64,000 nt of DNA from a bacterium (GTDB lineage Bacteria; Bacillota_I; Bacilli_A; RFN20; CAG-826). The translations under genes and the position numbers were made by a program. The notes under the pieces were generated by a model. That model was not told the origin of the DNA and did no database searches. It saw nothing but the letters and a program-made list of their open reading frames with translations. This document shows positions 23,517-55,590 of this stretch, one piece after another. Location of the stretch: positions 64,398 through 128,397 of the forward strand of contig CAVFKA010000010.1 in the NCBI GenBank assembly GCA_963623195.1, given 5' to 3'. Numbering within the stretch: the first letter of the stretch is position 1; every line of letters starts with the position of its first letter.

Positions 23517-23570
23517 AGTTGTCTCCTTTTTGACGTGTAAAATTTAACATTACAAAAGAAAAATATTTCT

Positions 23571-23604
23571 ATTTGGCAAAATTAAAGCCGTTTTTGGCAA
23601 AATT
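23571..23604 (-). promoter_or_regulatory. Two perfect 13-bp direct repeats (TTTGGCAAAATTA) with 21-bp phasing; candidate LytTR operator for the GH3 arm of cassette 1
   Basis: The repeats lie at 23571-23583 and 23592-23604, between the kinase stop (23608) and the GH3 start (23516). A TGtTAAATT extended -10-like element lies downstream on the minus strand. Confidence 0.55.
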
Positions 23605-23607
23605 ACC

Positions 23608-24876
23608 TTATTGAAGAGGGAAAATTATATTTAATTTGAATAGTTTATCTTCGATTGCAATATTCATATTGCCTTCATATTTGTTAACGGTATACCTAAT
23701 AGATTTAAGACCAAAACCATGCATATTTTGATCTGACTTGGTTGTTTTTGGAAGACCGTCAACGAGTGAATATTCTCCATCAAAATAGTTTTCAATGTGC
23801 AAGCAAATGATTCCGCCTTTTTTGAATAATTTCAATGATATATAACGGAGAGAGGGGTCTTCGATTTTCTTTTCGTATTCAATGGCATTGTCTAATGCGT
23901 TTCCAATAATCGAGGTGATGTCACCTGGAGATAAGAAAGAAAGCAATGAGCCATCCGCTATTATCGTGAATTCAATTTTCTCTTTAATGCAAAGGTAACG
24001 TTTTTCGGTAAGGATGATATCCAAGGCGGAGTTGCCGGTGATGACTTGGGTGTCATACTCGTTAACTACGTCAATGACTTCATTTATGAACTTATCGTTT
24101 TGTCCCTGCTTCATCATCAAAACTTGATTTTTAAGATCATGAGCTTTGTAATTGATGACTTCCATGTTCTTTTTGGAACTTTCAAATTGAAGGGCTTGCA
24201 ATCTGCTATATTCCTCGAGTGTTTTGTTTTCTTCTTTTTCTTTCGAATAATAGAGAAAATAATATAAGGACGTTAACCCATATAAAGAACATATGGCCAA
24301 AGGCATATGAACAATCCAATATCCATTTAGATCGAATTGCAAAAGCATGAAATGCATGAAATAGATGAAAACTGCGGTTATTATGGCAAAAAGGAACATA
24401 AAACCCGTTTTGATTGTTGTAACATTTTTCCCTGAGTCGATTTTTCTAGCAAAGAAAAAGTAACAAATTCCGTATATGATGACGTTTGTCGTTACTGATA
24501 AAACAAACCATAACGCATCGGTGAAGAAATCAGGAAACGCCCAATAGAAGATCGATTCGATGTTGTATGAAAGATTTTGAGTGAATTGCGCTGAGACACC
24601 AATAAAAAGCAAAGAGGACAAATCAACCTCAAATAAGAAAAAGAAGTAGCCTAAAGTCAAAAGAAAAATGATGAAGGAGAAAAAACCTGGAGTGAAATAT
24701 GCGATAATATTCGGGATGCAAATGACAGAAAGAGCATACACTAAAGTCCCAGGAATTATACGAATTAGGAAATGATTCCTTCTTTTTGCCTTATATCCAT
24801 ATATAAGAATGGCTAACAACAATTGGATGATGTAGCCATGATTAACGCCTATCGAAAAAACATCTGATACAGTCAT
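23608..24876 (-). CDS. AgrC/HPK10-like sensor histidine kinase (GHKL, polytopic sensor domain)
   Basis: About 6-7 TM helices, H-box YKAHDLKNQ, N-box IGNALDNAIEY and G-box HGFGLKSI. ATGA overlap with the upstream regulator. Confidence 0.8.
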   Translation of the reverse strand: MTVSDVFSIGVNHGYIIQLLLAILIYGYKAKRRNHFLIRIIPGTLVYALSVICIPNIIAYFTPGFFSFIIFLLTLGYFFFLFEVDLSSLLFIGVSAQFTQNLSYNIESIFYWAFPDFFTDALWFVLSVTTNVIIYGICYFFFARKIDSGKNVTTIKTGFMFLFAIITAVFIYFMHFMLLQFDLNGYWIVHMPLAICSLYGLTSLYYFLYYSKEKEENKTLEEYSRLQALQFESSKKNMEVINYKAHDLKNQVLMMKQGQNDKFINEVIDVVNEYDTQVITGNSALDIILTEKRYLCIKEKIEFTIIADGSLLSFLSPGDITSIIGNALDNAIEYEKKIEDPSLRYISLKLFKKGGIICLHIENYFDGEYSLVDGLPKTTKSDQNMHGFGLKSIRYTVNKYEGNMNIAIEDKLFKLNIIFPLQ

Positions 24877-25586
24877 TGTTTTTCCTCAGCTAAAAAGCTT
24901 GTTAGTTTTTGCATGAATTCTTTTTTGTAGATATCACTAAGAGGTAGGCGTTCTCCTTGGACAGATATTTCATTTGCCTTAAAAGATTCGACGAATGATA
25001 GATTGATCAATATGGATCTTGTTGAAAAGGCAAACGATTTGCCATTAAAAGAAGACGATATGTTTTGCATCTTGTTCCTCTCCCTTAATGTTTTGCCATT
25101 CGAGAGATGATAAAGAAGATAATGCTTTTCGGTTTCAATGAAGACAATTTCACTTAAATGAGCCACGTATGATTCATCTTGACCATTGATGACATATGTG
25201 GAATCATCCTCGTTTTCGAAACGCTCAACGATCCTATCTAATTTTATTTTGAAGGTGTTGTAGTTAATTGGCTTAAGAATGAAATCCAAGGCATTGACCT
25301 CATAACCCTTGATTGCGTATTGGGAAAGGTTCGTTAAAAAGACAAGAGTTAATTTCGAATCGATCTTTCTTAGTTCGGAAGCTACTTGCATGCCACTCAT
25401 TTTAGGCATATCGATATCCATAAAAACCAAATTAAATTGATTGGCGTAATTATTTAAAAAAGCGACTCCATCCTTATAATGAGTTACTTCAAAATTGATG
25501 TTTTTTTCTTTTCCGTATTCTTGGATATATTTAACCGTTTCGTCGGCAAAATGTTGATCATCTTCAACTAAAGCAATCTTTAACAT
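24873..25586 (-). CDS. LytTR-family response regulator
   Basis: Receiver domain (LVFMDIDMP, ILKP) plus a C-terminal LytTR domain (IVFIETEKHYLLYHL...SILINLSFV). Confidence 0.85.
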   Translation of the reverse strand: MLKIALVEDDQHFADETVKYIQEYGKEKNINFEVTHYKDGVAFLNNYANQFNLVFMDIDMPKMSGMQVASELRKIDSKLTLVFLTNLSQYAIKGYEVNALDFILKPINYNTFKIKLDRIVERFENEDDSTYVINGQDESYVAHLSEIVFIETEKHYLLYHLSNGKTLRERNKMQNISSSFNGKSFAFSTRSILINLSFVESFKANEISVQGERLPLSDIYKKEFMQKLTSFLAEEKQ

Positions 25587-29777: not shown

Positions 29778-32099
29778 TTAAGCGGCAAGAGCTTCTTTAG
29801 CTTTGACGTGTCTGTCCCAAAGGAAGAGACCGACTCCACCAAGGATGATGATACCGACAGGAATTGCCCATCCCCATGCGGCCCAATTGAAGGTGACGTA
29901 TGTGAGACATCCTAATGCATATGAAGTGCCAATCCAGAAGAGAATTGTCCAAAGGATTGAGAATTTTCCAGGCAATTCGCCTTTTGCTGTACCAATTGAG
30001 GCAAAGCATGGGATAGTTGTCATATTGAAGACGGCGAAAGCGACTAATGAAGCGGTAGTGATGTTACCACCTGTTGCGTTAGCGGCATTGATAATTGCTT
30101 GTAAGCCTTCGAGACCTTCTTCAGTTTCGGTGCCAACGGCTGTTGCTAATTGGGTAAGTGTGGCAACGACATTTTCTTTTGCGACGATACCTTGGATGGA
30201 TGCGACCGCGAATGTCCAGCCATATTGACCACCTTGGACATTACCGAATCCCATAGGGACAAAGAGTGGTGATAGGAATCTTCCGATATAGGCGAGTATT
30301 GAATCGGATACGCCTAATTCCTCATGCATGTCGATGAATTGGAAGGTTGGGGAGAAGCTGGATAAGAACCAGATGATGACAGAAGAAGCAAAGATGATGG
30401 TGAATGCTTTCTTGATGTAGTGTTTTCCTCTATCCCAAACATGTAAGGCAAGGGCTTGGAATTGTGGAGCGTGGTAGGCAGGTAATTCCATGATGAATGG
30501 AGGAACCTTCTCACGTTGAGTCGTTTTGTTCATGACGATGACTGCGGCTATGGCGACAATGACGCCAAAGAGGTAGATCAAGAAGGTGAACAAGCCTTGA
30601 TCAAGCGAAGTTGCAGCAGCAACCGCAGCAGCGATCGTAACTAAGAATTCAGCTTTAGCTCCGCAAGTGAAGAAAGGAATTGCACGGATTGTTTTTGTTC
30701 TTTCCTTATCGGAGGCAAGGGTTCTAGTGTTAATCATGGCAGGAACACCACAACCAAATCCCATGACCATAGGTAAGAAGGCTCTTCCAGAGACGCCAAA
30801 GCGGCGGAAGATTCTATCAAGAACGAAGGCGATACGTGCCATATATCCGCTATCTTCAAGAAGAGAGAAGAAGGCGAATAAGAGAAGAATTTGAGGGACA
30901 AATCCCAAAACTGATGAGATACCGTTGAGTACGCCATCATAGATGAATCCAATTAACCATTCAGGTGAATTCCATAAGGTTAAGAGTTGTTTGATACCAA
31001 TACAAATCATACCTTGGATACCGGCATCGTTGCCTGCACCAAGTAAGCCTTGTAAGATCGCACCAGGTGAATTGATGCCATCTGCGGTATAGAAGAGTTC
31101 GGCAAATGGGTAGAATTCCTCTCCATCGACGGTCCAGTGGATCAAACCTTGATATCCTTCGCCAAAGTTAACGCCCATAGCGCCTAGATAGAACAAATCT
31201 CCGGCGAATACAAGGTGGAATATTAAGAATAGAAGGACGATCATAATCGGTATGGCAGCCCATTTATTGGTCAAAACCTTATCGATCTTGTCGGATCTAG
31301 AGAGTTTCTTCTTTTCTTGAGTGACTCCGCCTTTGCGGTGGATTGCTAGTTTAGTGGTAATGAACTTATAACGCTTATCGGCGGTGTCTGCTTCATATTC
31401 CTCTGGATTAGCTAGAGGTTCGACACCTTCATAAGCATGTTGGTTCTTTTCTTTTTCGATTTCATCGCCTTCAAGGGCTTTAATCGCATGGAAACGAGGA
31501 TCGGCAATGCCATCACCCTCATATTCTTTCATGGCTTTTTCGATGATTTCCTCATCCTCTTTTGAGGCCCAAAGAGAAACGCCTTTACGTTCTTTTGAAG
31601 CTGTTTTGACGGCTAAATCCATCAATTCATGAAGATTCTTCTTTCTTAAAGCGGAAATCTCAATAACAGGAACACCAAGTTCCTTAGAAAGAGCATCAAC
31701 ATCGATACATTGATTGCTTTCAGCTAGAGCATCGCTCATATTGAGTGCGACGACGACAGGAACGTTCATCTCAAGGATCTGAGTGGTCATATAAAGATTA
31801 CGTTCAAGGTTTGTTGCATCAAGGACGTTGATTACTAAATCTGGTTTCTCCTCAAGAATGTAGTTTCTAGAGATTACTTCTTCTGGGGTATAAGGGGAAA
31901 GGGAATAAATACCTGGAAGGTCTACGATTTCGATTCCTTCCTTGCTACCTTTCTTCTTGTAGGTTCCAGATCTTTTCTCGACTGTGACACCAGGCCAGTT
32001 ACCAACGTATGCGCTGCTTCCTGTCAAAGAGTTGAAGAGGGTGGTCTTACCACAGTTAGGGTTGCCAGCTAGGCAAAATCTCAATGTTTTCTCAGCCAT
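29778..32099 (-). CDS. feoB: Ferrous iron transporter FeoB
   Basis: G-domain GNPNCGKTTLFN, DLPG, NMSD, then the polytopic permease. The start follows GGAGG by 8 nt. Confidence 0.95.
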   Translation of the reverse strand: MAEKTLRFCLAGNPNCGKTTLFNSLTGSSAYVGNWPGVTVEKRSGTYKKKGSKEGIEIVDLPGIYSLSPYTPEEVISRNYILEEKPDLVINVLDATNLERNLYMTTQILEMNVPVVVALNMSDALAESNQCIDVDALSKELGVPVIEISALRKKNLHELMDLAVKTASKERKGVSLWASKEDEEIIEKAMKEYEGDGIADPRFHAIKALEGDEIEKEKNQHAYEGVEPLANPEEYEADTADKRYKFITTKLAIHRKGGVTQEKKKLSRSDKIDKVLTNKWAAIPIMIVLLFLIFHLVFAGDLFYLGAMGVNFGEGYQGLIHWTVDGEEFYPFAELFYTADGINSPGAILQGLLGAGNDAGIQGMICIGIKQLLTLWNSPEWLIGFIYDGVLNGISSVLGFVPQILLLFAFFSLLEDSGYMARIAFVLDRIFRRFGVSGRAFLPMVMGFGCGVPAMINTRTLASDKERTKTIRAIPFFTCGAKAEFLVTIAAAVAAATSLDQGLFTFLIYLFGVIVAIAAVIVMNKTTQREKVPPFIMELPAYHAPQFQALALHVWDRGKHYIKKAFTIIFASSVIIWFLSSFSPTFQFIDMHEELGVSDSILAYIGRFLSPLFVPMGFGNVQGGQYGWTFAVASIQGIVAKENVVATLTQLATAVGTETEEGLEGLQAIINAANATGGNITTASLVAFAVFNMTTIPCFASIGTAKGELPGKFSILWTILFWIGTSYALGCLTYVTFNWAAWGWAIPVGIIILGGVGLFLWDRHVKAKEALAA

Positions 32100-32100
32100 T

Positions 32101-32403
32101 TTATTTTGCCTCCTTTTCTTCAACGCTTAAATCTGTGACTTTGACAATAACGTGTATTGCTTCGTCTTTTCTTAAGGTTAATTCATAACCTCTTAATGTA
32201 ACTTCTAATGGGTCGCCAAGCGGAGCCTTCTTTCTTAAGAAAACTTCAGCACCAGGAGTCAAACCCATATCGAAGATACGTCTTTTGATTCTTCCTTCTC
32301 CCTCAATTCTAACGATGTCTCCAGACATTCCAATTTTAAGGGATGACAAAGGAAGTTCGTCACCTAAACCGATTTGTTCAGGCTCAAGTTCTTTTTCTTC
32401 CAT
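32101..32403 (-). CDS. feoA: FeoA-domain protein
   Basis: SH3-like FeoA pattern (RIFDMGLTPGAEVFLRKKAPLGDPLEVTLRGYELTLRKDEA). Confidence 0.85.
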   Translation of the reverse strand: MEEKELEPEQIGLGDELPLSSLKIGMSGDIVRIEGEGRIKRRIFDMGLTPGAEVFLRKKAPLGDPLEVTLRGYELTLRKDEAIHVIVKVTDLSVEEKEAK

Positions 32404-32432
32404 AAATAATTTCCTACGCTTCTTATAAAGAT

Positions 32433-32651
32433 TTAGTTAGTTTCAACAATGATGTTTCTTGCGACATTCTTATCAAGAGCAAGTCTAGTCTCTCCAACAC
32501 GAACGATAATTCCACTCTCAGTATGAGAAAGAAGCCTTATTATCGTGTTTGGAACCAATCCTAGTTCTCTAAGATGTTTGCAAGTTTTGTCATTTCCAAC
32601 AATTCTGACGATTGTTAGATCTGTATCTACTGGCGCAATCATTATAGGCAT
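32433..32651 (-). CDS. feoA: FeoA-domain protein
   Basis: HLRELGLVPNTIIRLLSHTESGIIVRVGETRLALDKNVA. Confidence 0.85.
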   Translation of the reverse strand: MPIMIAPVDTDLTIVRIVGNDKTCKHLRELGLVPNTIIRLLSHTESGIIVRVGETRLALDKNVARNIIVETN

Positions 32652-32707
32652 AGTTAGTTACTCCTTATGCAATGATTATATGCGTATAAATTTTCAAATC
32701 AAGAAAA

Positions 32708-32725
32708 AGTTAGTTCCACTTAACT
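32708..32725. promoter_or_regulatory. Weak inverted repeat AGTTA-N8-TAACT in the feoA/dtxR divergent region (candidate metalloregulator operator)
   Basis: Seen in the sequence. The arms are only 5 bp. Confidence 0.2.
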
Positions 32726-32774
32726 AAAAAAATGGTTAGAATATTATTACTCAGTTAAAAAGAGAGGTATTTTT

Positions 32775-33149
32775 ATGGCAATTGATGCGTTAGAATCAGC
32801 AGAAGACTATTTAGAGAGAATCCTTATGTTGCAAGAAAGCGGAATGAAAGAAATTCACGCTGTCGATCTTGCTTCCTCATTTGGATATTCGAAAGCGTCT
32901 ATCTCAATCGCTTTACATAAATTAGAGGAGAAGGGCTATGTCGCTCTTGGCCTTAGAAGCCAACTTTATCTAACACCAGCCGGATACGATATCGCAAAGA
33001 AGGTTTACGATAAGCACCAAACCATCTCCGCTTGGCTTATCTCGATTGGCGTTTCTAAGGAAACTGCCCTTAAAGACGCATGCCGTATGGAACACTTCAT
33101 TTCCGATGAAACCTACGAAGCATTAAAGAAACAAATCGAGAACAAATAA
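32775..33149 (+). CDS. DtxR/MntR-family metal-dependent repressor (short form)
   Basis: SAEDYLERILML..., wHTH LASSFGYSKASISIALHKLEEKGYV, and CRMEHFIS metal-site region. It is divergent from the feo operon. Confidence 0.8.
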   Translation: MAIDALESAEDYLERILMLQESGMKEIHAVDLASSFGYSKASISIALHKLEEKGYVALGLRSQLYLTPAGYDIAKKVYDKHQTISAWLISIGVSKETALKDACRMEHFISDETYEALKKQIENK

Positions 33150-35871: not shown

Positions 35872-36004
35872 CTCTTTTTGAATTTCCCTCATATTGGTTA
35901 GCCTTTACAAACTAGTAAAAAGTAAAAGTTTTTTCGCTATTTTTGTGTTTAACTTTCATATATTTACGAAGTAAAATAACTTTGTCTTGAAAGGATTTTT
36001 ACAT

Positions 36005-36253
36005 ATGGAAACGAGTAAAAAAACAGCTCAGGCTTGTATTCGTTGCGCCCGTTGTGTTCAAAAATGCCCATTAGGCCTTAATCCAGTCATGATCATGACG
36101 ACGATGAAGAGTATGCCTGTGGATAAAGCAAAGGTGAAGTTATTAAATCCAACCGTTTGCGATGAATGCAAGAAATGCAACGATGCTTGTCCAAGCAACA
36201 TTGATTTAGCAACAATAGTCAAAAGAGCGAAAGTTGTTGCAAAACTTCCTTAA
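36005..36253 (+). CDS. rnfC: RnfC-type 2x[4Fe-4S] module only (82 aa; no RnfC_N, NADH/FMN or SLBB domains)
   Basis: CIRCARCVQKCPLGLNP...CDECKKCNDACPSNIDL matches the C-terminal RnfC/RsxC cluster region (CIRC..C...CP / C.EC..C...CPSNIPL). Only 133 nt separate it from the purB stop. Confidence 0.75.
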   Translation: METSKKTAQACIRCARCVQKCPLGLNPVMIMTTMKSMPVDKAKVKLLNPTVCDECKKCNDACPSNIDLATIVKRAKVVAKLP

Positions 36254-36267
36254 TATGAGGTGATTTT

Positions 36268-37431
36268 ATGGCAGAAGAAGTAATACAAAATAAACCTCAA
36301 GCTGAAGTTAGCGCGCCTAAGAAAGTTCATAAGCAATCTGTCGAATGGATGTTATTTGACGTTCTTATTGCCTTAGCTCCAACTTTGATTTTCTCAATTT
36401 TAGCCTATGGTGTTTACGCCATTCGCAACGTTTTGATTCCAGTGGTGACGATGTTCATCTCTGAAATGGTTTTCGTTCTTATCAAAAACCGCAAAGCTCT
36501 CTTTAGCAAAGATGAAAAGACAAAAAAGAGTTTCTTTGAAGTTCTTAACGTCGTTGATATTGTCTCACCAATAATCTCAGGCATTATCTTTGGCTTAATG
36601 ACTCAAAGCAGGGACACAAATCCAACATGGTTGATTTATTTCATCCTCATTGTTTCCTCTTTGTTTGGCATTATCTTCGGAAAACTATGTTTTGGTGGAC
36701 TTGGAAAGAATATTTTCAATCCAGCAGCGGTTTCCTTCATTTTCATGCTTATTTGTTTCAATAGCAAATTCACGGGAGTCTCCCACTATAACCCATTTGG
36801 GCTTTCTTTCTTAGGAAGTGCCTCATCTACATTTGGAATTGAAACTAATGCTACAGTTTTATCTGCAGGATTTAACGCTTCTAATTACACCTTAGAGAAT
36901 ATCTCATCTTTATTCTTTGGCACGTTCAATGGCGGAATTGGTGAATCATGCAAGATTCCTCTCTTAGTTGGCATGGCCTATTTATTAATAAGAAGAGACG
37001 CTGATTGGAAAGTTGTCCTTTCTTTCCTCTTAACATTCTTAGCAATGACTTTAGTCGCAGGACTCTTCATGATGAGAAAGGATATAAATCCAATTTATTA
37101 CACCCTCTATCAACTCTTATCTGGCGGAGTCATATTCGGCATGGCCTATATGATTGTTGAGCCAGTCACTATGCCTTTGACCGCCCCAGCTAGAGTAATG
37201 TATGGAATGATCATCGCAATCATCGCCGTCTTCATCCGTACCTTTGCTTCCGCTCCAGAAGGAATGGCCTATGCCATTGTTATGGGCAATGCAATCGGCT
37301 GTTTTGTCGATTACTATAAGTGGAGCAAAGTCAAGTTCGATTGGAAGAGCTGGGTTGCTATCGCCTCAATTGCCGTTGTTGCCTTAGGCGTATTTGCCTG
37401 GTGCATGAATGGCTATAACTATGGAGCATAA
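36268..37431 (+). CDS. rnfD: Rnf complex subunit D
   Basis: Polytopic NQR2/RnfD family: FNPAAVSFIF, GGIGESCKIPLLVGMAYLLIRR, LLSGGVIFGMAYM. A GAGGTGA RBS precedes it. Confidence 0.85.
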   Translation: MAEEVIQNKPQAEVSAPKKVHKQSVEWMLFDVLIALAPTLIFSILAYGVYAIRNVLIPVVTMFISEMVFVLIKNRKALFSKDEKTKKSFFEVLNVVDIVSPIISGIIFGLMTQSRDTNPTWLIYFILIVSSLFGIIFGKLCFGGLGKNIFNPAAVSFIFMLICFNSKFTGVSHYNPFGLSFLGSASSTFGIETNATVLSAGFNASNYTLENISSLFFGTFNGGIGESCKIPLLVGMAYLLIRRDADWKVVLSFLLTFLAMTLVAGLFMMRKDINPIYYTLYQLLSGGVIFGMAYMIVEPVTMPLTAPARVMYGMIIAIIAVFIRTFASAPEGMAYAIVMGNAIGCFVDYYKWSKVKFDWKSWVAIASIAVVALGVFAWCMNGYNYGA

Positions 37432-37435
37432 AAAT

Positions 37436-38881
37436 ATGTCAAACGAAAATAAGAAAAATAACGACTTACTTAAATGGTTGAAAGTCGGTGGCATATTATG
37501 TGCTATCGCAGGTGGTTCAGCCGTTATTCTAACTTCCCTTAATTTATTAACCGCCCCAATCATTCAAAAGAACAATGCTAGCAAGACTGCTGGTGGATAT
37601 CTCTCTATCTTCTCTAATTATGATCATAGTGGAGATAAGGTTGCCTTAGAGAGCGACACCCTTGCCTCATATGAAATTGCATATGATTCAAGCAATGCCG
37701 AACTTGGATATGTCTATACGACAAAATCCATCGCCGTCAAAGCCTATGGCAACATTACTGCCATGATTGGCGTAAGCGGATCAACTGATTCCCCAACTCT
37801 TGGAAAAGTCTATCTTGTTGAAGATTCCCTTTCTTACAAGACGACATTCGAATCCAATTATGTTGAGAAATATAACGCAAATCCATCTGATACGACGCTT
37901 AATGACGTCAAGTGTGGTGCAACATTCGCAGCTAGCGCTCTTCAAGAATTAGTAAATGCCGCAAGAGACCATTACATCTCAATTGGCGATCCTTTCAAAG
38001 AAGATTTAGCAAGCGATATTACAGCCATTTGGGGAGATAAAGCAGGATATGTGACCGATTATTGCGTAACCAGCAATTTCTCTGATGCTTCAAGCAATCT
38101 TAAGAAATACCATTCGTTCTATGAAGATGATACGATGACTGGTGAAATGGGCCGTCTCTATTCAGGCAAGTTCAAAGATGCCGCAGGAGACGTATATATC
38201 ACCGTTGGTTTTGAATCTGAAGAATATGGCAAACTTGTCATCACAAAGAATACTGTTGAAGATGAAGCTGAAAAGAACACGATCTCAACCTTTGTTGACG
38301 CATATAACGCAAACCCATCCATCGATGTTTTGAATACGGCAAGTGGAAAATACGCCACAGCCATCAAAGATATGGTCGTTGCCGCTCATTCTGATTTAGC
38401 GACAAACACTCTTAAGTCATCAACAAACGCGATTCCAACAATTGTTAACACAAGTGCATATAAGTCCATCTCCAAACCAACTGTATTAGAGGCGTCTTCT
38501 GACAATGAGAGAGTTCTTCGTTATTGGAGTCTCTTCTCCGATGAAGAAGGAACAAAAGAAGTCGCAAAAGTCTATAAGATTAACGTCGATATGGCTGAAG
38601 AGGAGAATCCTGGCAAAGGAATTTATGCCAATATCGAATCCCATACGACTTTCTTGATCACGATTTCTGGCGAAACCGAGCCAATCCTTGGCAAGATTGC
38701 AACCCTTAAATCTGAAGGTGGTGCAGGACAACTTAAAACCATCAACAACTACCTTGATAACTTTGATGGAAGCCAAAATGAAGATTCTGCTAACAAAACA
38801 GGTGCCACATATACCCTTAAAGCGGTATGGAGAGGTATCAACAAGGCCAAAGAATTATATTCTAAGGACTTAGCAAAATAA
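37436..38881 (+). CDS. rnfG: Rnf complex subunit G, expanded: N-terminal TM anchor plus three tandem FMN_bind-like repeats
   Basis: Each repeat ends in ...YNANPSDTTLNDVKCGATFAASALQELV, ...YNANPSIDVLNTASGKYATAIKDMV or ...FDGSQNEDSANKTGATYTLKAVWRGI. Canonical RnfG has a single S/TGAT(S/T) site and about 200 aa. Confidence 0.8.
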   Translation: MSNENKKNNDLLKWLKVGGILCAIAGGSAVILTSLNLLTAPIIQKNNASKTAGGYLSIFSNYDHSGDKVALESDTLASYEIAYDSSNAELGYVYTTKSIAVKAYGNITAMIGVSGSTDSPTLGKVYLVEDSLSYKTTFESNYVEKYNANPSDTTLNDVKCGATFAASALQELVNAARDHYISIGDPFKEDLASDITAIWGDKAGYVTDYCVTSNFSDASSNLKKYHSFYEDDTMTGEMGRLYSGKFKDAAGDVYITVGFESEEYGKLVITKNTVEDEAEKNTISTFVDAYNANPSIDVLNTASGKYATAIKDMVVAAHSDLATNTLKSSTNAIPTIVNTSAYKSISKPTVLEASSDNERVLRYWSLFSDEEGTKEVAKVYKINVDMAEEENPGKGIYANIESHTTFLITISGETEPILGKIATLKSEGGAGQLKTINNYLDNFDGSQNEDSANKTGATYTLKAVWRGINKAKELYSKDLAK

Positions 38882-38894
38882 GGAGGAAAGAGAT

Positions 38895-39653
38895 ATGTCT
38901 ACGAATTCTATTGCACGTTCTGAGCACAAAGCGAATTTCATCAATCCTATTTGGAAAGCAAATCCTCTCTTTGTCTTGCTTCTTGGAACATGTCCAGCTT
39001 TAGCTGTTACAACCACCATCGAGAATGCTATCGGTATGGGTATTCTCTTCACATTTGTTCTTATTGGTTCCTCAGTCTTGGTTTCTCTTCTTAGAAAATT
39101 CATCCCTGAAGAAATCGAAACCCCAGCGTTCATCATTATCATTGCTACATTCGTTACAATCGTTAAGATGCTCGCTGAAGCCTTCCTTCCTGAACTCTAC
39201 ACAGGCTTAGGCGTGTTTATCTCCTTGCTTGTCGTTAACTGTATCGTCTTAGGAAGAGCAGAAGCCTTTGCTAAGAAAAACACGGTCTTTGATTCATTCT
39301 TAGATGCTTTAGGAAACGGCATTGGCTATATCATTGCTATTCTTATTATTGCCGCCATCCGTGAAATCTTAGGAACAGGTGTTATTACAATCGGCGCCGT
39401 CTTTACTTTCATTCCAAAGACTGAAATCCCCGTCTTGAAGTTTGGAGATGTTGATTTATCGATCTCTCTATTTGCAAAGCCAGCTGGCGGTTTCATCGTC
39501 TATGGTGTTATTGAAGCAATCATCGCTTGTGTCAATATCTCTAAGGCAAATAAAGAAGCGGCAGCTAAGAGAGCTGCTCTCTTAAAAGCCCAAGAAGAAA
39601 AGAAAGCGGCTCTTGCAGCCCAACAAGCTCAAACAGCTAAGGAGGCAAAATAA
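38895..39653 (+). CDS. rnfE: Rnf complex subunit E (with a K/A-rich C-terminal tail)
   Basis: NPIWKANPLFVLLLGTCPALAVTT is the classic RnfE/NqrD N-terminus. AAGGAGG RBS. Confidence 0.9.
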   Translation: MSTNSIARSEHKANFINPIWKANPLFVLLLGTCPALAVTTTIENAIGMGILFTFVLIGSSVLVSLLRKFIPEEIETPAFIIIIATFVTIVKMLAEAFLPELYTGLGVFISLLVVNCIVLGRAEAFAKKNTVFDSFLDALGNGIGYIIAILIIAAIREILGTGVITIGAVFTFIPKTEIPVLKFGDVDLSISLFAKPAGGFIVYGVIEAIIACVNISKANKEAAAKRAALLKAQEEKKAALAAQQAQTAKEAK

Positions 39654-40243
39654 TGACAGCCACTAATTTATTTACGGCATTCTTGCTCGCTATAGTATCA
39701 TCGATGCTCATCAACAACGTCGTTCTTTCAAGATTCTATGGCATCTGTTCTTATTTAGGCGTTTCCAACAAAGTCAAATCAAGTGCTGGCATGGGCGTTG
39801 CAGTCGTCTTTGTCATCATGCTTGCATCATTGGTTTGCTATCCTATTTATAATTATATTCTTGTGCCAGCTGGACTTTCTTTCTTAGATACGATTGTCTA
39901 TATCTTAGTCATCGCCTCATTAGTCCAACTTGTCGCTCTCTTCATCAAGAAATATTCGCCATCCCTCTATAAGAGCCTTGGTATCTATCTTCCTTTGATC
40001 ACCACCAACTGCGCTGTTCTTGGTGTTGTTCAAGAAAATAATGCCCTTTCCTTTGCTGATTCAATGGCTAACGCTATTGGCACAAGCTTAGGCTTCCTTA
40101 TCATGATTGTTCTATTCTCCGCAATCCGCGTAAGACTAGAATCAACTGATTCCCCTAAAGCATGGAAAGGTCTCCCTCTTGCCTTGATTACCGCTGCCAT
40201 TATGGCGATGGCCGTCATGGGCTTAAGCGGAATGATTGCCTAA
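39653..40243 (+). CDS. rnfA: Rnf complex subunit A
   Basis: NNVVLSRFYGICSYLGVS and LPLITTNCAVLGV (RnfA/NqrE family). TAATG coupling to rnfE. Confidence 0.9.
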   Translation: MTATNLFTAFLLAIVSSMLINNVVLSRFYGICSYLGVSNKVKSSAGMGVAVVFVIMLASLVCYPIYNYILVPAGLSFLDTIVYILVIASLVQLVALFIKKYSPSLYKSLGIYLPLITTNCAVLGVVQENNALSFADSMANAIGTSLGFLIMIVLFSAIRVRLESTDSPKAWKGLPLALITAAIMAMAVMGLSGMIA

Positions 40244-40244
40244 T

Positions 40245-40454
40245 ATGCCTCAATACGCATATATCATCATTGCAATTGCTCTTATCATCGTCTTAGCGGC
40301 CACATTCTTCGTTAGTTTCATTCTCTATAGAAGAATGCCCGCCCCTAAGGGATGTGAAGATGTCAAAGCAGATCCCGAGATGTGTCCAAATTGTCAAAAG
40401 ACAAATTGCCCATTCTTCGAGGAATTTCACAAAGAAGATAAAGGAGAAAAATAA
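40245..40454 (+). CDS. Small TM plus Cys-rich protein inserted between rnfA and rnfB
   Basis: One TM helix, then C-x10-C-x2-C-x4-C (GCEDVKADPEMCPNCQKTNCP). Tightly packed in the operon. Confidence 0.55.
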   Translation: MPQYAYIIIAIALIIVLAATFFVSFILYRRMPAPKGCEDVKADPEMCPNCQKTNCPFFEEFHKEDKGEK

Positions 40455-40456
40455 AT

Positions 40457-40783
40457 ATGGATCCACTTACGATACTTTGGGGCGTTCTCGTCCTTGCAGG
40501 ACTTGGCTTGCTCTTAGGCTTCTTACTTGCCTTGGCCGCCAAATTCCTTCATGTTGAAGAAGATAAACGTATAAAAGAAGTTGAAAATATGCTTCCAGGT
40601 GCAAACTGTGGTGCTTGCGGATATGCCGGATGCCACGATCTTGCTGAAGCATTAGTCACCGGACAGGCAAAGAAAGTAACCGCTTGTAAGGTTGGCAAAA
40701 AAGAGAAAAACTTCGATCCAATTGTCGCTTATATGAAGGCCACACCAGGCCCAGATGGAAAAATTACTGAAGTTAGTGAATAA
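40457..40783 (+). CDS. rnfB: RnfB N-terminal module only (TM anchor plus CxxCGxxGC Fe-S domain; no ferredoxin domains)
   Basis: LPGANCGACGYAGCHDLAEALVTGQAKKVTAC follows a TM helix. 108 aa. AAGGAG RBS. Confidence 0.75.
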   Translation: MDPLTILWGVLVLAGLGLLLGFLLALAAKFLHVEEDKRIKEVENMLPGANCGACGYAGCHDLAEALVTGQAKKVTACKVGKKEKNFDPIVAYMKATPGPDGKITEVSE

Positions 40784-40845: not shown

Positions 40846-40921
40846 GGGACTTTAGCTCAGTTGGGAGAGCACCTGCTTTGCAAGCAGGGGGTCGCCAGTT
40901 CGAGCCTGGTAAGTTCCACCA
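40846..40921 (+). tRNA. tRNA-Ala (anticodon TGC)
   Basis: Acceptor GGGACTT/AAGTTCC with the G3-U70 identity pair, anticodon loop TTTGCAA, encoded CCA. Confidence 0.9.
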
Positions 40922-40928
40922 TTTAAAT

Positions 40929-41005
40929 GGCTAAGTAGCCCAGTTGGTTAGAGCAATCGGCTCATACCCGATATGTCGAGGGTTCGAGTCCCCCCTTAGC
41001 CACCA
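40929..41005 (+). tRNA. tRNA with anticodon CAT (elongator Met or lysidine-dependent Ile2; not distinguishable by eye)
   Basis: Acceptor GGCTAAG/CTTAGCC, anticodon stem ATCGG/CCGAT, loop CTCATAC. It has C12-A23 and A50-C64 mismatches. Confidence 0.75.
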
Positions 41006-41016
41006 ATAATTAATTT

Positions 41017-41044
41017 AGACCTGACAATTGTTGGGTCTTTTTTC
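41017..41044 (+). terminator. Rho-independent terminator
   Basis: AGACCTGAC-aatt-GTTGGGTCT (two G-U pairs) plus T6. Confidence 0.7.
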
Positions 41045-41129: not shown

Positions 41130-41205
41130 TTCTCATTGTGTGAAAATAAATGTTGAAAGGGTGTTTTTTGAATGCTAACATAAATTTACTCACATGGAGA
41201 AAAAT

Positions 41206-43998
41206 ATGGAAGATTTAAAAAAGAAAAGAGATGAACTTCTAGACGTAAAACCGGATATTCAATTCGATAATCCGCCAAGAGAAAAGATTTTAGCCTTAGC
41301 ACAAAAGATGACTCCGCGTAGTGGGGTTAGTATTACCTCAAGCGATCCAGAATATTATGGCATTGCTTGCATCACTAGCGATGAAGAAGCGGAAATCATG
41401 CTAAAGATGAAAATAAGAAAGCCATACACTTTTGCTCAATTGCTTAAGCTTTCTGGCCTAGATGAGAAGACCTTGCAAAAGGATTTAGACCATATGGCCT
41501 TATATGGCATGATTGAATATAACTGGGAAAACAAAAAGAGAGAAAAACAATATATTCTTCCTATTTTAGTTCCTGGCAGTGCTGAATTTACCAATATGAG
41601 ATGGGAAGAGATGGAAGAACATCCTGAACTTGCCCGTTATTTTGACCGCATGACATTGGTTCCTCTTGAAAAGGTAGGCTCTCTTGTACCTATGGGCGGA
41701 GCTGGAATTGGAATGCACGTCATTCCAGTGGAAAAGGCAATCCAAGCGGAAAACAAATCCGCTTCAGTTGAACATATCTCTCACTGGTTAGATAAATACG
41801 AAGGCAAATATGCCGCCTCCCCATGCTCTTGCCGTATGGGAAGACATTTCTTAGGCGATGCAACACCAGATGATTATCGCGATTGGTGCATTGGCTTAGG
41901 TGACTATGCAACCTACTTAGTCGAAACTAAAAAAGGTAGATACATCAGCAAAGAAGAATGCTTGAAGATTCTTGAAAAAGCCGAGAAGAATGGCTTTGTC
42001 CACCAAATCACCAACATTGATGGAAAAGATAAAATCTTTGCTATCTGTAACTGTAACAAAGATTCTTGCACAGCCATTAGAAGCTCTCAAATCTATAATT
42101 CTCCAAATTTGATGAGATCTGCATATGTTGCTCATGTTGATAAGAGCAAGTGCGTCGCTTGTGGAAAATGTGTCGAAACATGTCCAGCCGGCGCTTTGAA
42201 GTTAGGCCAAAAATTATGTTCAAAGAATGGCCCTATCACATACCCTACCCAAGAATTGCCAGGAAACGTGCCATGGGGACCAGAAAAATGGAACTTTGAA
42301 TATCGTGATACAAATAGAGTCAATTGCCATAAGAGTGGCACCTCACCATGTAAAACGGCTTGCCCTGCCCATGTTTCTGTTCAAGGCTATATCAATTTAG
42401 TTGCCCAAGGCCGTTATAAAGATGCCTTGGAATTAATCAAGAAAGACAACCCATTCCCTGCAATTTGCGGCCGTGTCTGCAATAGACGTTGCGAGGAAGC
42501 ATGCACAAGAGGAAACATCGATAGAGCTTTAGCAATCGACGCCATCAAGAAATTTGTCGCCGAACAAGACTTAAAGAAAGAAACAAGATTCGTTCCTGAA
42601 ATCGTAATGCCTTCTACAACCTTAGATCATTGGGATGAAAAAATCGCGATTATCGGTGGTGGTCCTAGCGGATTATCATGCGCCTATTTCTTAGCGTTAC
42701 ACGGCTATAAGCCAACAGTCTTTGAAAAGAACAAAGAATTAGGTGGCATGATGACATATGGCATTCCTTCATACAAGCTTGAAAAAGACGTCATCAATGC
42801 TGAAATTGAGATTCTTAAAGATTTAGGCGTCGAATTCAAAACTAATGTCAATGTTGGAAAAGACATCAGTATTGCCTCTTTAAGAAAAGAGGGGTACAAA
42901 GCCTTCTATCTCGCTATCGGTTGCCAAGGTGGCAAGAAACCTAACGTTCCAGGAGATGATGCTAAAAATACATTCATTGCCGTAGATTTCTTACATGATG
43001 CGTATGAAGGCAAGAAAAAGAAACTTGCTGGAAATGTCGTTGTTATCGGCGGAGGCAACGTTGCAATAGATTGTGCACGTGTTGCCGCACGTTTAGGCGC
43101 AAGCTCAGTTTCAATGTTCTCCTTAGAAAAGGAAAACGAAATGCCAGCAGCTAAGGATGAAGTTCTCGAAGCCAAAGAAGAAAAAGTGGACATCAAGAAT
43201 TCTTGGGGTCCAAAAGAGATCAAGAAAGACGAAAATGGCAAAGTGACCTCCATCATCTTTAAGAAATGTGTCAGCGTCTTTGACGAAGAACATCATTTCA
43301 GCCCGAAATATGATGAAAATGAATTGTTGGAAGTCAATGCCGACTATGTCATATATGCCATCGGGCAAGATGTCCTTTGGGGCAACTTGCTTAAAGGCGA
43401 GAATGTTGAGATGGCTAAAGGGAACTACCCTAAAGCAGATCCTATCACCTATCAAACCACGGTTGAAGATATCTTCATTGGCGGAGATTTGTTGACCGGA
43501 CCTAAGTTTGTTATCGATGCTATCGCCACAGGCCATAACGCAGCCGATTCCTTGAACCTATTCGTTAGACCTCAAGCCGATCTCCTTAAAGGTAGAAACA
43601 GAAGAGAATTCATCGCCTTCGATGTTGATAATGTCACTCTTCCAACCTACGATAAGACCCCTCGTCAAGAAGAAGGAGTCGATCCTAATGTTGAAGCATT
43701 ATCATTCAAGGATAAGCGCTTAACATTTAGCGAAGAGCAAGCAAAGAAAGAAGCATCACGTTGCTTAGGATGTGGTCTTACAATCGTCGATCCAAATAAA
43801 TGTTACGGTTGCGGTATTTGCACCCTTAGATGTAAATTCGATGCAATCCATCTTGAGAGGGACAACCCTAAAGCAAGCAGAATGCATTCAAATGAGCAAA
43901 AACTCAAGATACTCTTACCGATCATCATCAAACGTAAGATGAAATTCAAAAAACTTGCCAAAAAGCAGGCAAAAGAAGTTAAAAAAGCCGAAAAATAA
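41206..43998 (+). CDS. Large multidomain Fe-S flavoprotein: Cys-motif N-domain, 4Fe-4S, GltD/DPD-like NAD(P)H:FAD oxidoreductase and C-terminal 2x[4Fe-4S]
   Basis: SPCSCRMGR...ICNCNKDSC; CVACGKCVETCP; CKTACPAHVSVQGYI...ICGRVCNRRCEEAC (GltD-type cluster domain); KIAIIGGGPSGLSCAY; VVVIGGGNVAIDCA; CLGCG...CYGCGICTLRC. The start follows GGAG. Confidence 0.8.
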   Translation: MEDLKKKRDELLDVKPDIQFDNPPREKILALAQKMTPRSGVSITSSDPEYYGIACITSDEEAEIMLKMKIRKPYTFAQLLKLSGLDEKTLQKDLDHMALYGMIEYNWENKKREKQYILPILVPGSAEFTNMRWEEMEEHPELARYFDRMTLVPLEKVGSLVPMGGAGIGMHVIPVEKAIQAENKSASVEHISHWLDKYEGKYAASPCSCRMGRHFLGDATPDDYRDWCIGLGDYATYLVETKKGRYISKEECLKILEKAEKNGFVHQITNIDGKDKIFAICNCNKDSCTAIRSSQIYNSPNLMRSAYVAHVDKSKCVACGKCVETCPAGALKLGQKLCSKNGPITYPTQELPGNVPWGPEKWNFEYRDTNRVNCHKSGTSPCKTACPAHVSVQGYINLVAQGRYKDALELIKKDNPFPAICGRVCNRRCEEACTRGNIDRALAIDAIKKFVAEQDLKKETRFVPEIVMPSTTLDHWDEKIAIIGGGPSGLSCAYFLALHGYKPTVFEKNKELGGMMTYGIPSYKLEKDVINAEIEILKDLGVEFKTNVNVGKDISIASLRKEGYKAFYLAIGCQGGKKPNVPGDDAKNTFIAVDFLHDAYEGKKKKLAGNVVVIGGGNVAIDCARVAARLGASSVSMFSLEKENEMPAAKDEVLEAKEEKVDIKNSWGPKEIKKDENGKVTSIIFKKCVSVFDEEHHFSPKYDENELLEVNADYVIYAIGQDVLWGNLLKGENVEMAKGNYPKADPITYQTTVEDIFIGGDLLTGPKFVIDAIATGHNAADSLNLFVRPQADLLKGRNRREFIAFDVDNVTLPTYDKTPRQEEGVDPNVEALSFKDKRLTFSEEQAKKEASRCLGCGLTIVDPNKCYGCGICTLRCKFDAIHLERDNPKASRMHSNEQKLKILLPIIIKRKMKFKKLAKKQAKEVKKAEK

Positions 43999-52399: not shown

Positions 52400-53125
52400 A
52401 TGATAAAAGTTGCGATTGTTGAAGATTCAAAACAAGATTTAAACGATTTATTATCCTGTCTTACCCAATATGAGAAAGAACATTCAGAGGAATTTCAAAT
52501 CGATTCATTTTCCAATGGTTTAGATTTCATTGAGAAATACAATGAAGGATACGACCTGGTTTTCATGGATGTTAATATGCCTTATGAAAACGGTATTAGC
52601 ATTTCTAAACGCTTACGCCTTATTGATAAAGATGTTCCTATTGTTTTCGTAACTCAAATGGCTCAATATGCCATCTCAGCCTTCGATGTAAGTGCTAAGG
52701 ATTACCTTCTTAAACCAATCATATATTCATCTTTTGCTTTTCGCTTTTCCAAAATTCTCGATGGAATAAAAATCAATTCAGGGAATGATGGCGTTTCTTT
52801 TCTAGTTAAAACATCGGATGCACACATTAAAATAAACTCAAACGATATAACTTACGTTGAAGTCGTAAGGCATACTCTTATTTTCCATACGTTGGATGGA
52901 GAATTTGAAACAGGCGGTTCATTGAAAAATATAGAAGCTAAGCTATCTGGTCAAGGAAAGACGTTTGCTAAATGCAACAATTGTTACCTCATTAATCTTA
53001 GATATATTGAAAAAATAGAGAGCGAAACGCTTTATCTTAAAGGGGCGGCATTAAAAATTAGTCGTTCACGCAAAAAAGAATTCATGGATCGCGTTTGTCT
53101 CTATTATGCAGAAGGTGGACATTAA
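52400..53125 (+). CDS. LytTR-family response regulator (cassette 2)
   Basis: Receiver (LVFMDVNMP, LLKP) plus LytTR domain (ITYVEVVRHTLIFHT...CYLINLRYI). Confidence 0.85.
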   Translation: MIKVAIVEDSKQDLNDLLSCLTQYEKEHSEEFQIDSFSNGLDFIEKYNEGYDLVFMDVNMPYENGISISKRLRLIDKDVPIVFVTQMAQYAISAFDVSAKDYLLKPIIYSSFAFRFSKILDGIKINSGNDGVSFLVKTSDAHIKINSNDITYVEVVRHTLIFHTLDGEFETGGSLKNIEAKLSGQGKTFAKCNNCYLINLRYIEKIESETLYLKGAALKISRSRKKEFMDRVCLYYAEGGH

Positions 53126-54435
53126 TGGAATTCCTTAACGCCATTTTTGTTACGCTTCAACAATATCAATTTCGCTTGTTTTGGCCTGAACTTTTATTCA
53201 TGATTCATTTGCCAAAACGCTCATTTTACTGGCTAAGATCGCTGGTTTGGATTCCTTTTTTAATCGTTCCATTTTTCTTTAGTACCTTTTTTACTAGTCC
53301 CTTTTTCAAATTGGGTTTTTATAATTGGAGCTTTTTGCTTTGGTTCGTCTATTCCATTTTTGCTGTCTGCTTTTGCCATAAGACAAATGTTTCAAATTTT
53401 ATTTTTGCTTTGGCCTCTGCCTATACCATTCAGAATTTATTTGTCGACTTCAAATTCTTTATTTACTATATGCTTAGCCCCGATGAAACTCTTTTGTATA
53501 ACATCTTGACGTTCTTGCTAATGGTTGGCATATATGCAATTACATATTTCCTTTTTACGAAACCATGGTCGAAAAAAATCAATGAAGGTTTGAAAATCAA
53601 CCATATATCCTTGGTTGTCATCTCTATTTTTATCCTTCTTTTCCTCAATGTTCTAAGTTCCGTTCTCGTTAATATTACCGATAACACAAAAACACTCGCG
53701 ATAATTTGCCTTCTTTTCTCTATTTGTTCTCTTTTTGTCTTGATGCTTCTTTCTACCGCTTATGACAAATCATATTTTCAATACGAAACCGAAAGCGTTA
53801 AAAAAATGCTGGATGAGTTCGAAAGACAAAGAAAAATATCCGAGCAAACAATCGATATCATTAACATGAAATGCCATGACATGAAACATCAACTTATGGC
53901 TTTAAGAAGTTCAAAAGAAAACATCGATGACGATTTTTATAAAAAAGCAGTAGACTCCATCGCCATATATGATTCTTTCTTTAAGACGGGAAATGAATCC
54001 CTTGATTTGGTTCTTACGGAGAAAAGCCTTCTTTGCAACAAAGAAAACATAAGACTTACGTGTGTTGCGGACGGTGAGGCGATTTCTTTCATGAAGCCAA
54101 GTGATGTTTACTCTTTCTTTGGAAATGCAATAGATAACGCTATGGAATGCCTCGTCAAATATGATAAAAGCAAAAGAGATCTAAGCATAATTGTTAGAAA
54201 AACAAATACAGGTTTTGTTAGCATTACGATTGAAAACTATTGCCAAGAGGATGCCAAGTTTGTAAATGGATTGCCAAAAACCACAAAAAACAATGTCTCA
54301 TTTCATGGCTTTGGAACTAAGAGCATGAAATACATAATCGAAGATATATATCACGGAACTATCTTGATGGAGCGTAAGAAAGATGCATTTTGTGTCTCCG
54401 TGTTGATCCAAATCGATCAAGAAAAGACCAAATGA
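53125..54435 (+). CDS. AgrC/HPK10-like sensor histidine kinase (cassette 2)
   Basis: About 6 TM helices, H-box MKCHDMKHQ, N-box FGNAIDNAMEC and G-box HGFGTKSM. TAATG coupling to the regulator. Confidence 0.8.
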   Translation: MEFLNAIFVTLQQYQFRLFWPELLFMIHLPKRSFYWLRSLVWIPFLIVPFFFSTFFTSPFFKLGFYNWSFLLWFVYSIFAVCFCHKTNVSNFIFALASAYTIQNLFVDFKFFIYYMLSPDETLLYNILTFLLMVGIYAITYFLFTKPWSKKINEGLKINHISLVVISIFILLFLNVLSSVLVNITDNTKTLAIICLLFSICSLFVLMLLSTAYDKSYFQYETESVKKMLDEFERQRKISEQTIDIINMKCHDMKHQLMALRSSKENIDDDFYKKAVDSIAIYDSFFKTGNESLDLVLTEKSLLCNKENIRLTCVADGEAISFMKPSDVYSFFGNAIDNAMECLVKYDKSKRDLSIIVRKTNTGFVSITIENYCQEDAKFVNGLPKTTKNNVSFHGFGTKSMKYIIEDIYHGTILMERKKDAFCVSVLIQIDQEKTK

Positions 54436-55585: not shown

Positions 55586-55590
55586 TCAAA

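Follow-up and report, generated by a model that had tools for sequence, protein, structure and literature searches.

An rnf operon of uncultured gut Bacilli in which RnfC is limited to its two-cluster [4Fe-4S] domain

In essentially all metabolic reconstructions of anaerobes, the Rnf complex is taken as a ferredoxin:NAD+ oxidoreductase. We analyze here an rnf operon from a bacterium of the lineage CAG-826 (RFN20, Bacilli_A), located within a stretch of 64,000 nucleotides (nt) of contig CAVFKA010000010.1 (assembly GCA_963623195.1, positions 64,398 to 128,397 of the forward strand), hereafter the window, in whose coordinates all positions are given. RnfC of this operon (RnfC') is a stub of 82 amino acids (aa) within a conserved complex and, as encoded, has no site for NAD(H) or flavin mononucleotide (FMN). 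The reading that we favor, with a probability of roughly 0.55, is that the operon encodes a functional, derived Rnf which lacks the NAD(H) module of RnfC and is no longer a ferredoxin:NAD+ oxidoreductase on its own.

Structures of the Rnf complexes of Azotobacter vinelandii (8AHX), Acetobacterium woodii (9ERI) and Clostridium tetanomorphum (7ZC6) were used for comparison. These canonical complexes share with the window operon the order C-D-G-E-A-B and homologous RnfD, RnfE, RnfA and RnfG subunits; the transmembrane (TM) helix and FdI domain of RnfB, the 2x[4Fe-4S] domain of RnfC, the flavinylated threonines and the [2Fe-2S] cysteines are all kept. In contrast, RnfC of the window operon is devoid of the RnfC_N, NuoF-like FMN/NADH and SLBB domains, RnfB lacks ferredoxin-type domains, RnfG is tripled, and an extra single-TM subunit with four cysteines is encoded between rnfA and rnfB. 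In A. woodii, pumping occurs at the RnfA/RnfE [2Fe-2S] cluster, which is reduced by the flexible RnfB cluster and re-oxidized by the FMN of RnfG, RnfD and RnfC being an electron wire to NAD+ (PMC11889175). The Rnf of Thermotoga maritima has the same minimal RnfB as the window operon, of ~10-12 kDa and with a single predicted 4Fe-4S cluster (10.56 kDa in T. maritima); once purified, that complex transfers electrons from clostridial ferredoxin to NAD+ and translocates Na+ (PMC7414866). It differs from the window complex in that, as shown by its reduction of NAD+, it has a functional NAD-binding module, and in that its RnfG is of single size, 24.3 kDa (PMC7414866).

Other systems also provide terms of comparison. 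Na+-NQR ranks among the closest known ones, together with the T. maritima Rnf and a Bacilli variant with full RnfC that is described below. Its subunit NqrA, homologous to RnfC, sets a precedent, having given up the original catalytic role although the membrane core persists (PMC12174285). NqrA has the whole fold without cofactors, whereas RnfC' is devoid of the fold and retains the Fe-S domain that carries the cofactors; an NqrF-like input module, as in Na+-NQR, is not found in the window. RsxABCDGE of E. coli, an Rnf-type complex, has been proposed to deliver electrons to SoxR, an Fe-S protein of the cytoplasm, and not to conserve energy (PMC12174285), so that it illustrates how a cytoplasmic protein might act as acceptor or donor; unlike in that system, no SoxR-type partner is evident for the window operon. 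Two-subunit NQR/RNF-like systems consist of RnfD-NqrF fusions with an NAD-binding domain (PF00175), and RnfA, RnfE, RnfB and RnfC are absent from them (PMC8238504, PMC10979944), whereas the window RnfD is PF03116 alone, with no NqrF-type fusion. When the texts of PMC8238504 and PMC10979944 were searched by term, neither mention of RnfC nor description of a truncated RnfC was found; the same type of search in a review on Rnf and NQR brought up no passage about subunits that are truncated or shortened, and no truncated Rnf was found in a search of the RF39-Rnf literature or in the RFN20 genomics paper.

The operon comprises seven tightly packed genes in the plus strand, from 36005 to 40783, in the order rnfC'-rnfD-rnfG-rnfE-rnfA-orfX-rnfB'. 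An earlier note on this DNA, made from the sequence alone, had proposed this gene order, with RnfC' and RnfB' of 82 and 108 aa, and the open reading frames (ORFs) as well as the Pfam and NCBIfam scans agree with it. The features are as follows:

35949-35977, plus strand: promoter-like element TTAACT-17-TAAAAT in the spacer between purB and rnfC', from a consensus scan; its function is putative.
36005-36253, plus strand: rnfC', 82 aa, C-terminal 2x[4Fe-4S] domain of RnfC, from domain matches and structure alignments.
36268-37431, plus strand: rnfD, 387 aa (PF03116); codon of T196 at 36853-36855.
37436-38881, plus strand: rnfG-like gene, 481 aa, TM anchor followed by three FMN_bind-like domains, from an AlphaFold2 (AF2) model and hhalign; an alternative ATG lies at 37409.
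38895-39653, plus strand: rnfE, 252 aa (PF02508, NF009070), with C33 and C116.
39653-40243, plus strand: rnfA, 196 aa (PF02508, TIGR01943), with C32 and C120.
40245-40454, plus strand: orfX, 69 aa, one TM helix and four cysteines; it matches no known family and lies between rnfA and rnfB'.
40457-40783, plus strand: rnfB', 108 aa (PF04060), TM helix, single-cluster FdI domain and a conserved tail of ~30 aa.
40846-41038, plus strand: tRNA-Ala(TGC), tRNA-Met(CAT) and a terminator-like hairpin, from ARAGORN, Rfam and a terminator scan.

The stop codon of purB and the ATG of rnfC' are separated by a 133-nt spacer that contains many in-frame stops. This spacer shows no similarity to RnfC which, together with the in-frame stops, agrees with the earlier statement that no frameshifted N-terminal remnant is present. 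The TTG at 35987 is only a mechanical ORF start; the start of rnfC' was assigned to the ATG at 36005 because in-frame stops exist upstream of it in other species, and because a Shine-Dalgarno sequence (GAAAGGA, 8-10 nt before the ATG) and the TAAAAT -10 box are kept in all 13 species compared. At the other end, tRNA-Ala and tRNA-Met (40846-41005) and the hairpin (41017-41038) close the transcription unit after rnfB'. An Rfam scan of the operon region returned only tRNAs, and no riboswitch or other RNA.

Pfam and NCBIfam scans of RnfC' yield only matches to 4Fe-4S diclusters. The protein covers positions 355-429 out of the 435 of TIGR01945, with a score of 53 bits against a cut-off of 246, and aligns to RnfC residues 364-430 in 8AHX, 365-432 in 9ERI and 362-422 in 7ZC6. 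The 2x[4Fe-4S] domain of RnfC is present, its eight cysteines (C11, C14, C17, C21, C52, C55, C58 and C62) being invariant among relatives, and the 82-aa length of the stub holds for all of them, down to 63-65% identity. RnfC_N, Complex1_51K and SLBB were not detected in RnfC' by the same scans, the missing part amounting to ~355 aa. Three full-length RnfC queries were run by tblastn against the 64-kb window and 17 related loci, and only their C-terminal ~75 residues matched; no similarity to the RnfC N-domain, ApbE, EetA, EetB or NqrF was found either in the window or in these 17 loci of the clade that carries the stub. The domain scans and, for RnfC, tblastn bear out the view, already put forward in the earlier note, that the operon encodes neither an NADH/FMN site nor the polyferredoxin domains of RnfB. 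RnfC of T. maritima is full-length, and so is RsxC of E. coli, which binds NAD(P)H.

Around the second cluster motif, relatives with full-length RnfC have CIECGLCSYSCTSKI and the stub clade has CDECKKCNDACPSNI; the shift is from hydrophobic to charged residues, as would be expected of a newly solvent-exposed surface or of a docking surface. The partner of RnfC has also changed. In C. tetanomorphum 7ZC6, the N-terminal arm of RnfD is buried in RnfC (PMC9588780); in the stub clade this arm has lost its SPHxRR-like motif and is variable in both length and sequence. Judging from the alignments, the motif shift and the degeneration of the arm fit a surface that would no longer lie under the flavin domain.

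Neither the junction nor the genes behave as those of an assembly error or of a decaying operon. An identical RnfD and the same purB-rnfC' junction are found on an independent Logan contig (SRR13434654) and in two NCBI metagenome-assembled genomes (MAGs). When GTDB was scanned, with one genome per species, the arrangement purA-purB-rnfC'DGEA-X-B' was found in 10 species representatives, the RnfD identity of the representatives being 71-85%; an eleventh (L020) has the operon without matches to purAB. Additional Logan contigs carry the purAB-rnfC' operon as well. Members of the stub clade were found in NCBI, ENA and Logan sources, and none in JGI metagenomes. As the same junction occurs in independent assemblies and in several GTDB species, a mis-join between purB and rnfC' is excluded. 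Some of the contigs syntenic with the window (L011-L019, RnfD 71-85%) come from MAGs entitled 'Escherichia coli', 'Bacteroides uniformis', 'Alistipes communis' or 'Prevotella sp.', labels which are unreliable.

The seven genes were extracted from 12 other species-level loci to calculate the ratio of nonsynonymous to synonymous substitution rates (dN/dS). All ORFs are intact and the stub is of 82 aa throughout. Median pairwise dN/dS values are 0.048 for rnfB', 0.053 for rnfA, 0.056 for the neighboring housekeeping gene purB, 0.068 for rnfC', 0.074 for rnfE, 0.108 for rnfD, 0.132 for orfX and 0.174 for rnfG, the fastest-evolving subunit. Selection on rnfC' and rnfB' is hence comparable to that on purB. 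The operon is under purifying selection; it is functional and not decaying, and the intact genes at the 12 loci, with dN/dS of 0.05-0.17, support the streamlined functional complex that the earlier note had argued for.

The same note had taken RnfB', like RnfC', for a subunit cut down to a stub, and this part does not hold. RnfB' matches only PF04060 (1e-12) and aligns to residues 4-77 of 7ZC6_B, which correspond to the TM helix and the FdI domain; the pattern CxxCx4Cx17C (C51, C54, C59 and C77) is conserved. No Fer4 family was detected in RnfB' by the Pfam scan, and the C-terminal ferredoxin-type cluster domains are not present. A search with RnfB' retrieved 335 protein clusters. Among the 120 listed, lengths range from 76 to 127 aa, all but one being of at least 96 aa, with PF04060 as the only domain; the few clusters that bear a name are annotated as RnfB or as an Fe-S-binding protein, from 'Bacilli bacterium' or 'Candidatus Enteromonas'. 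RnfB of T. maritima was likewise described by Vitt et al. as an FdI domain alone (PMC9588780), and the complex with this one-cluster RnfB is active (PMC7414866). Short RnfB is thus an ordinary and already known variant, not a cut-down remnant. As a one-cluster RnfB works in the T. maritima Rnf, the ferredoxin entry site of RnfB' is plausibly intact.

Outside the stub clade, the sampled operons with short RnfB and distant RnfG have the order rnfC-rnfD-rnfG-rnfE-rnfA-orfX-rnfB-apbE, usually followed by genes of the eetA and eetB types (PF07009, PF07456). They encode RnfC of 436-439, RnfG of 459-502, OrfX of 80-96 and RnfB of 105-115 aa; their RnfC carries RnfC_N, Complex1_51K and SLBB, and RnfG has three domains. 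At loci of this type (L025-L034 and L037), the short RnfB is 62-72% and RnfA and RnfE are 61-72% identical to those of the window. This broad Bacilli variant is the evolutionary parent type of the window clade, which differs from it in the 82-aa stub, in adjoining purB and in having no apbE or eetAB nearby; that is, both the 5' two-thirds of rnfC and apbE-eetAB are missing from the stub-clade locus. In the deepest stub member found, RnfG is 42% identical to that of the window, and the 82-aa stub and the purAB synteny are already present; in the next lineage outward, RnfG is 33% identical and RnfC is of 436 aa. A profile of the stub, run against 1.84 billion representative proteins, retrieved one true-stub cluster at 50% identity, the next best match (94.9 bits) being a 437-aa RnfC of a related lineage.

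Since the sampled relatives pair short RnfB, orfX and triple RnfG with a full RnfC, these three features are older than the truncation of RnfC and represent the ordinary condition across a large Bacilli lineage. Truncation of RnfC is the only feature peculiar to the clade, and by these comparisons it took place a single time, along with a shift in genomic context. The idea that both proteins were shortened in one event is hence not sustained, the short RnfB being ancestral and accompanied by full-length RnfC, and the truncation of RnfC later and clade-specific. A description of orfX, short RnfB and triple RnfG as the standard form in this lineage was not found in the papers searched.

Several candidates that resembled further stubs or co-resident copies were discarded. 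Most other ~100-aa matches to the stub start with 'MMG...' at an internal GGPMMG motif and are contig-end fragments of full-length RnfC, and P0041 is an archaeal ferredoxin encoded beside sdhAB. P0011, which among full-length RnfC proteins resembles the stub most, belongs to another lineage: the RnfD N-terminus encoded with it is 45% identical to that of the parent-type locus L028 vs. 33% to that of the window, and the GC content of its contig is 44.8%. Three other observations were made in this group of proteins. P0020 (L039, 140-636) consists of 109 aa with an N-terminal TM helix and an RnfC-type 2x[4Fe-4S] domain, followed by the start of an RnfG-like gene; it could represent another type of RnfC stub, and its contig is of 637 bp with ~1x coverage. 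In L025, a JGI contig from a lineage with full-length RnfC, several frameshifts and a stop affect rnfC and the first ~75 codons of rnfD (900-2420) while rnfG to eetB are intact; the lesions are due to a separate decay of rnfC in that lineage or else to a local assembly problem, a single contig covering the region. In another lineage with short RnfB (L033/L034, 3173-4348), a 391-aa NqrF-like protein (Fer2 and NAD_binding_1) is encoded directly upstream of full-length rnfC.

With respect to the membrane part, RnfE matches PF02508 (9e-60) and scores above the cut-offs of NF009070 and TIGR01948, and RnfA matches PF02508 (5e-54) and TIGR01943. The cysteine pairs that are ligands of the [2Fe-2S] cluster are conserved in both (C32/C120 in RnfA, C33/C116 in RnfE). 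RnfD matches only PF03116 (5.7e-58) and has, besides its diverged N-terminal arm, an extra C-terminal hydrophobic segment; T196 (TNAT) aligns to the TGAT flavinylation motif of 8AHX_D and is T or S in all relatives. RnfD, RnfE and RnfA, the subunits that define the Rnf membrane core, are encoded in this one operon.

RnfG gives only a faint FMN_bind signal in Pfam and NCBIfam. An AF2 model built with 23 homologues (predicted local distance difference test score, pLDDT, 85; predicted template modelling score 0.76) consists of three beta-sheet/helix repeats after the TM anchor, and hhalign relates the three domains to each other with probabilities of 98.7-99.6%. The N- and C-terminal parts match by profile the RnfG subunits 7ZC6_G and 9ERI_G. 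Foldseek gave no significant global match, and a local one to the FMN domain of the multi-flavinylated protein CbFMN4 (8p2b). The CGAT motif of domain 1 (C160-G-A-T163; codon of T163 at 37922-37924) and the TGAT motif of domain 3 (T458; codon at 38807-38809) are invariant in 23 sequences, and the site of domain 2 is lost. RnfG can be described as a triplicated FMN-binding domain with two predicted flavinylation sites. With these three domains and two sites it would count among the multi-flavinylated RnfG clusters, for which at least two sites are required (Meheust et al., 2021; PMC8238504).

No Pfam or NCBIfam match was obtained for OrfX. It consists of an N-terminal TM helix, a basic stretch and then C37, C47, C50 and C55, the four cysteines being invariant in 17 sequences with the spacing C-x8-10-C-x2-C-x4-5-C. 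As its gene is found between rnfA and rnfB across the whole Bacilli lineage with short RnfB, OrfX is probably an undescribed Rnf subunit; a cytoplasmic orientation and the binding of a metal or cluster are predicted. To our knowledge, the Rnf of T. maritima has no equivalent of it.

How such a complex might work can be outlined from these data. We infer the electron path from the solved Rnf structures, and we infer as well the direction of flow, the coupling to ions, the acceptor and the loss, rather than relocation, of the N-module of RnfC. Reduced ferredoxin would dock directly on the mobile single-cluster domain of RnfB', as in T. maritima, possibly assisted by the four-cysteine OrfX. The electron would then pass to the intramembrane [2Fe-2S] cluster of RnfA/RnfE, the step that in A. 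woodii exports Na+ or H+, and from there to a covalent FMN on RnfG at the outer face. From RnfG it would return via RnfD (covalent FMN and riboflavin) to the two [4Fe-4S] clusters of RnfC' which, being exposed to the cytoplasm, could pass it to an acceptor different from NAD+, either soluble or peripheral, for instance an Fe-S protein or a flavoprotein. Electrons might also leave sideways, by way of the second flavinylated domain in RnfG, to an extracytoplasmic acceptor.

Whether the Rnf core has indeed been re-plumbed in this way, so that oxidation of ferredoxin and probably ion pumping are coupled to a non-NAD+ acceptor (a cytoplasmic protein at RnfC' or an extracellular one reached via RnfG), is to us an even bet. 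Ferredoxin oxidation and ion translocation would have been retained, since the components of the pumping half are present along with an entry site of the T. maritima type. As pumping in A. woodii depends on RnfA/RnfE, with RnfD-RnfC only as a wire (PMC11889175), exchanging the acceptor need not abolish it. A return via RnfC' is preferred over a purely outward route because strong constraint acts on T196 of RnfD and on each of the eight RnfC' cysteines, and the outward exit through RnfG is not what the truncation changed, because the two-site RnfG predates it.

Several points weigh against the loss of NAD(H)-linked function. All the genomes compared are MAGs or metagenome assemblies, and the DNA inspected comprises the 64-kb window and ~20 kb around the operon in each relative. 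The genes downstream of the operon vary among species of the stub clade, none being a syntenic partner. The AF2 model of RnfC' alone has a pLDDT of 41 and is uninformative; retention of the RnfC' cysteines could reflect the structural need for a folded domain on RnfD. Finally, ApbE must be encoded somewhere else in the genome because the flavinylated threonines of RnfG and RnfD are invariant, and the old locus near apbE may survive and could carry the 5' part of rnfC as a free NADH/FMN module.

This last point leads to gene fission, by which the segment from the 3' end of rnfC to rnfB' would have moved beside purB while the NADH/FMN module stayed at the apbE-eetA-eetB locus, yielding a ferredoxin:NAD+ enzyme of eight polypeptides. 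A translocated segment would explain why the 5' part of rnfC and apbE/eetA/eetB, which form the two ends of the ancestral operon, are missing together, the need for ApbE elsewhere, given the invariant RnfG T163/T458 and RnfD T196, points the same way, and RnfC' retains the clusters that would link to a separate NADH module. However, neither the charged surface around those clusters nor the degenerated RnfD arm that anchors RnfC in 7ZC6 (PMC9588780) would be expected if the N-domain were still packed and docked there. Moreover, split genes usually stay adjacent, and no gene for an NADH module occurs in the window or in the flanks of the 17 loci. We consider fission unlikely, if worth serious attention.

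Less probable again is an outward conduit driven by ferredoxin, in which the second flavin of RnfG would deliver electrons to Fe(III), a flavinylated reductase or another substrate, RnfD and RnfC' being retained mainly for assembly or to provide a second entry. A supply of electrons to alternative extracytosolic acceptors has been proposed for multi-flavinylated RnfG clusters (PMC8238504), and the three FMN_bind-like domains of RnfG with their two invariant sites would suit such a role. So would the proximity of the iron-uptake genes feoAB to rnf, which the stub clade shares with the L031 lineage, as well as the dN/dS of RnfG (0.174, the highest), as expected of an exposed, environment-facing protein. 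Nevertheless, triple RnfG is common to lineages with full RnfC and so did not change with the RnfC cut, the constraint on RnfD T196 and on the eight RnfC' cysteines remains strong, and no gene for an extracellular reductase or a cytochrome adjoins the operon. Of the transmembrane electron conduit suggested in the earlier note, what stands is that a two-site RnfG allows it; T196 and the RnfC' cysteines argue that the cytoplasmic return is still used. Nor do the eet genes of the relatives add to the case. EetB is an exporter of flavin adenine dinucleotide that provisions ApbE and often accompanies Rnf (PMC9973259). We discarded apbE-eetA-eetB as a sign of extracellular electron transfer because EetB serves ApbE in ordinary Rnf operons, and take the eet genes as maturation genes rather than genes of extracellular respiration.

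That another complete rnf operon, or a full-length copy of rnfC, elsewhere in the genome supplies the NADH module, the stub operon being a partly redundant paralogue, seems very improbable. Some bacteria, such as A. vinelandii, do have two rnf clusters (PMC12174285), and the MAG that encodes the full-length RnfC P0011 belongs to the same study series. Yet the P0011 contig is from another lineage, the clade consists of gut Bacilli with small genomes, and the stub operon is strongly selected as a complete seven-gene unit. An assembly artefact or a decaying pseudo-operon, for which it could be said that every source is a metagenome assembly, is refuted by the comparative data, as the junction recurs in independent assemblies from different samples and in at least 13 species-level lineages, with intact ORFs, dN/dS of 0.05-0.17 and conserved promoter and Shine-Dalgarno sequences.

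The loss of the NAD(H) module from a functional Rnf, the reading that we prefer, has consequences for annotation. The window operon should not be annotated as a ferredoxin:NAD+ oxidoreductase, and KEGG-style calls of 'Rnf present' would mislead on function for the stub clade. A conserved Rnf that is under selection and lacks an NAD(H) site would mean that other acceptors can be served by the pumping core (RnfB-FdI, RnfA/RnfE and RnfG), as the evolution of NQR from Rnf already hinted. If this is true, Rnf would be a modular redox pump with an exchangeable output module and not only a ferredoxin:NAD+ enzyme, and models of redox balance and energy conservation would change for abundant, uncultured gut Bacilli formerly assigned to the Mollicutes. 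The 82-aa RnfC' also represents a natural minimal construct for studying electron hand-off from RnfD to RnfC.

Some neighboring genes deserve mention. Downstream of the tRNAs, a 934-aa protein (41194-43998) combines a GltD-like NAD(P)H/FAD module with Fer4_20 and extra 4Fe-4S motifs, its best NCBIfam match, PRK12771, being below the cut-off. We considered this Fe-S flavoprotein as a substitute for the NAD(P)H module and rejected it: its gene is a separate one, set apart from the operon by the two tRNAs and the terminator, and it adjoins the operon in the window's own species alone (L002/L003) and at none of the other stub-clade loci. In the whole stub clade, feoB-feoA-feoA in the minus strand and a gene for a DtxR-like iron repressor lie upstream of purA-purB-rnfC' (29778-33149 in the window); in the L031 lineage, with full RnfC, feoA-feoA-feoB follow directly after rnf-apbE-eetA-eetB (L031/L032, 12886-15661). 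The proximity of feo and rnf may reflect shared neighborhood ancestry or a functional link of flavinylated RnfG with iron uptake. The window also contains two paralogous modules, at 20643-25586 (minus strand) and 52400-58380 (plus strand), each of which encodes, as read by eye from the translations, a LytTR-type regulator, a histidine kinase and a GH3-like protein of ~930-960 aa with a C-terminal membrane anchor.

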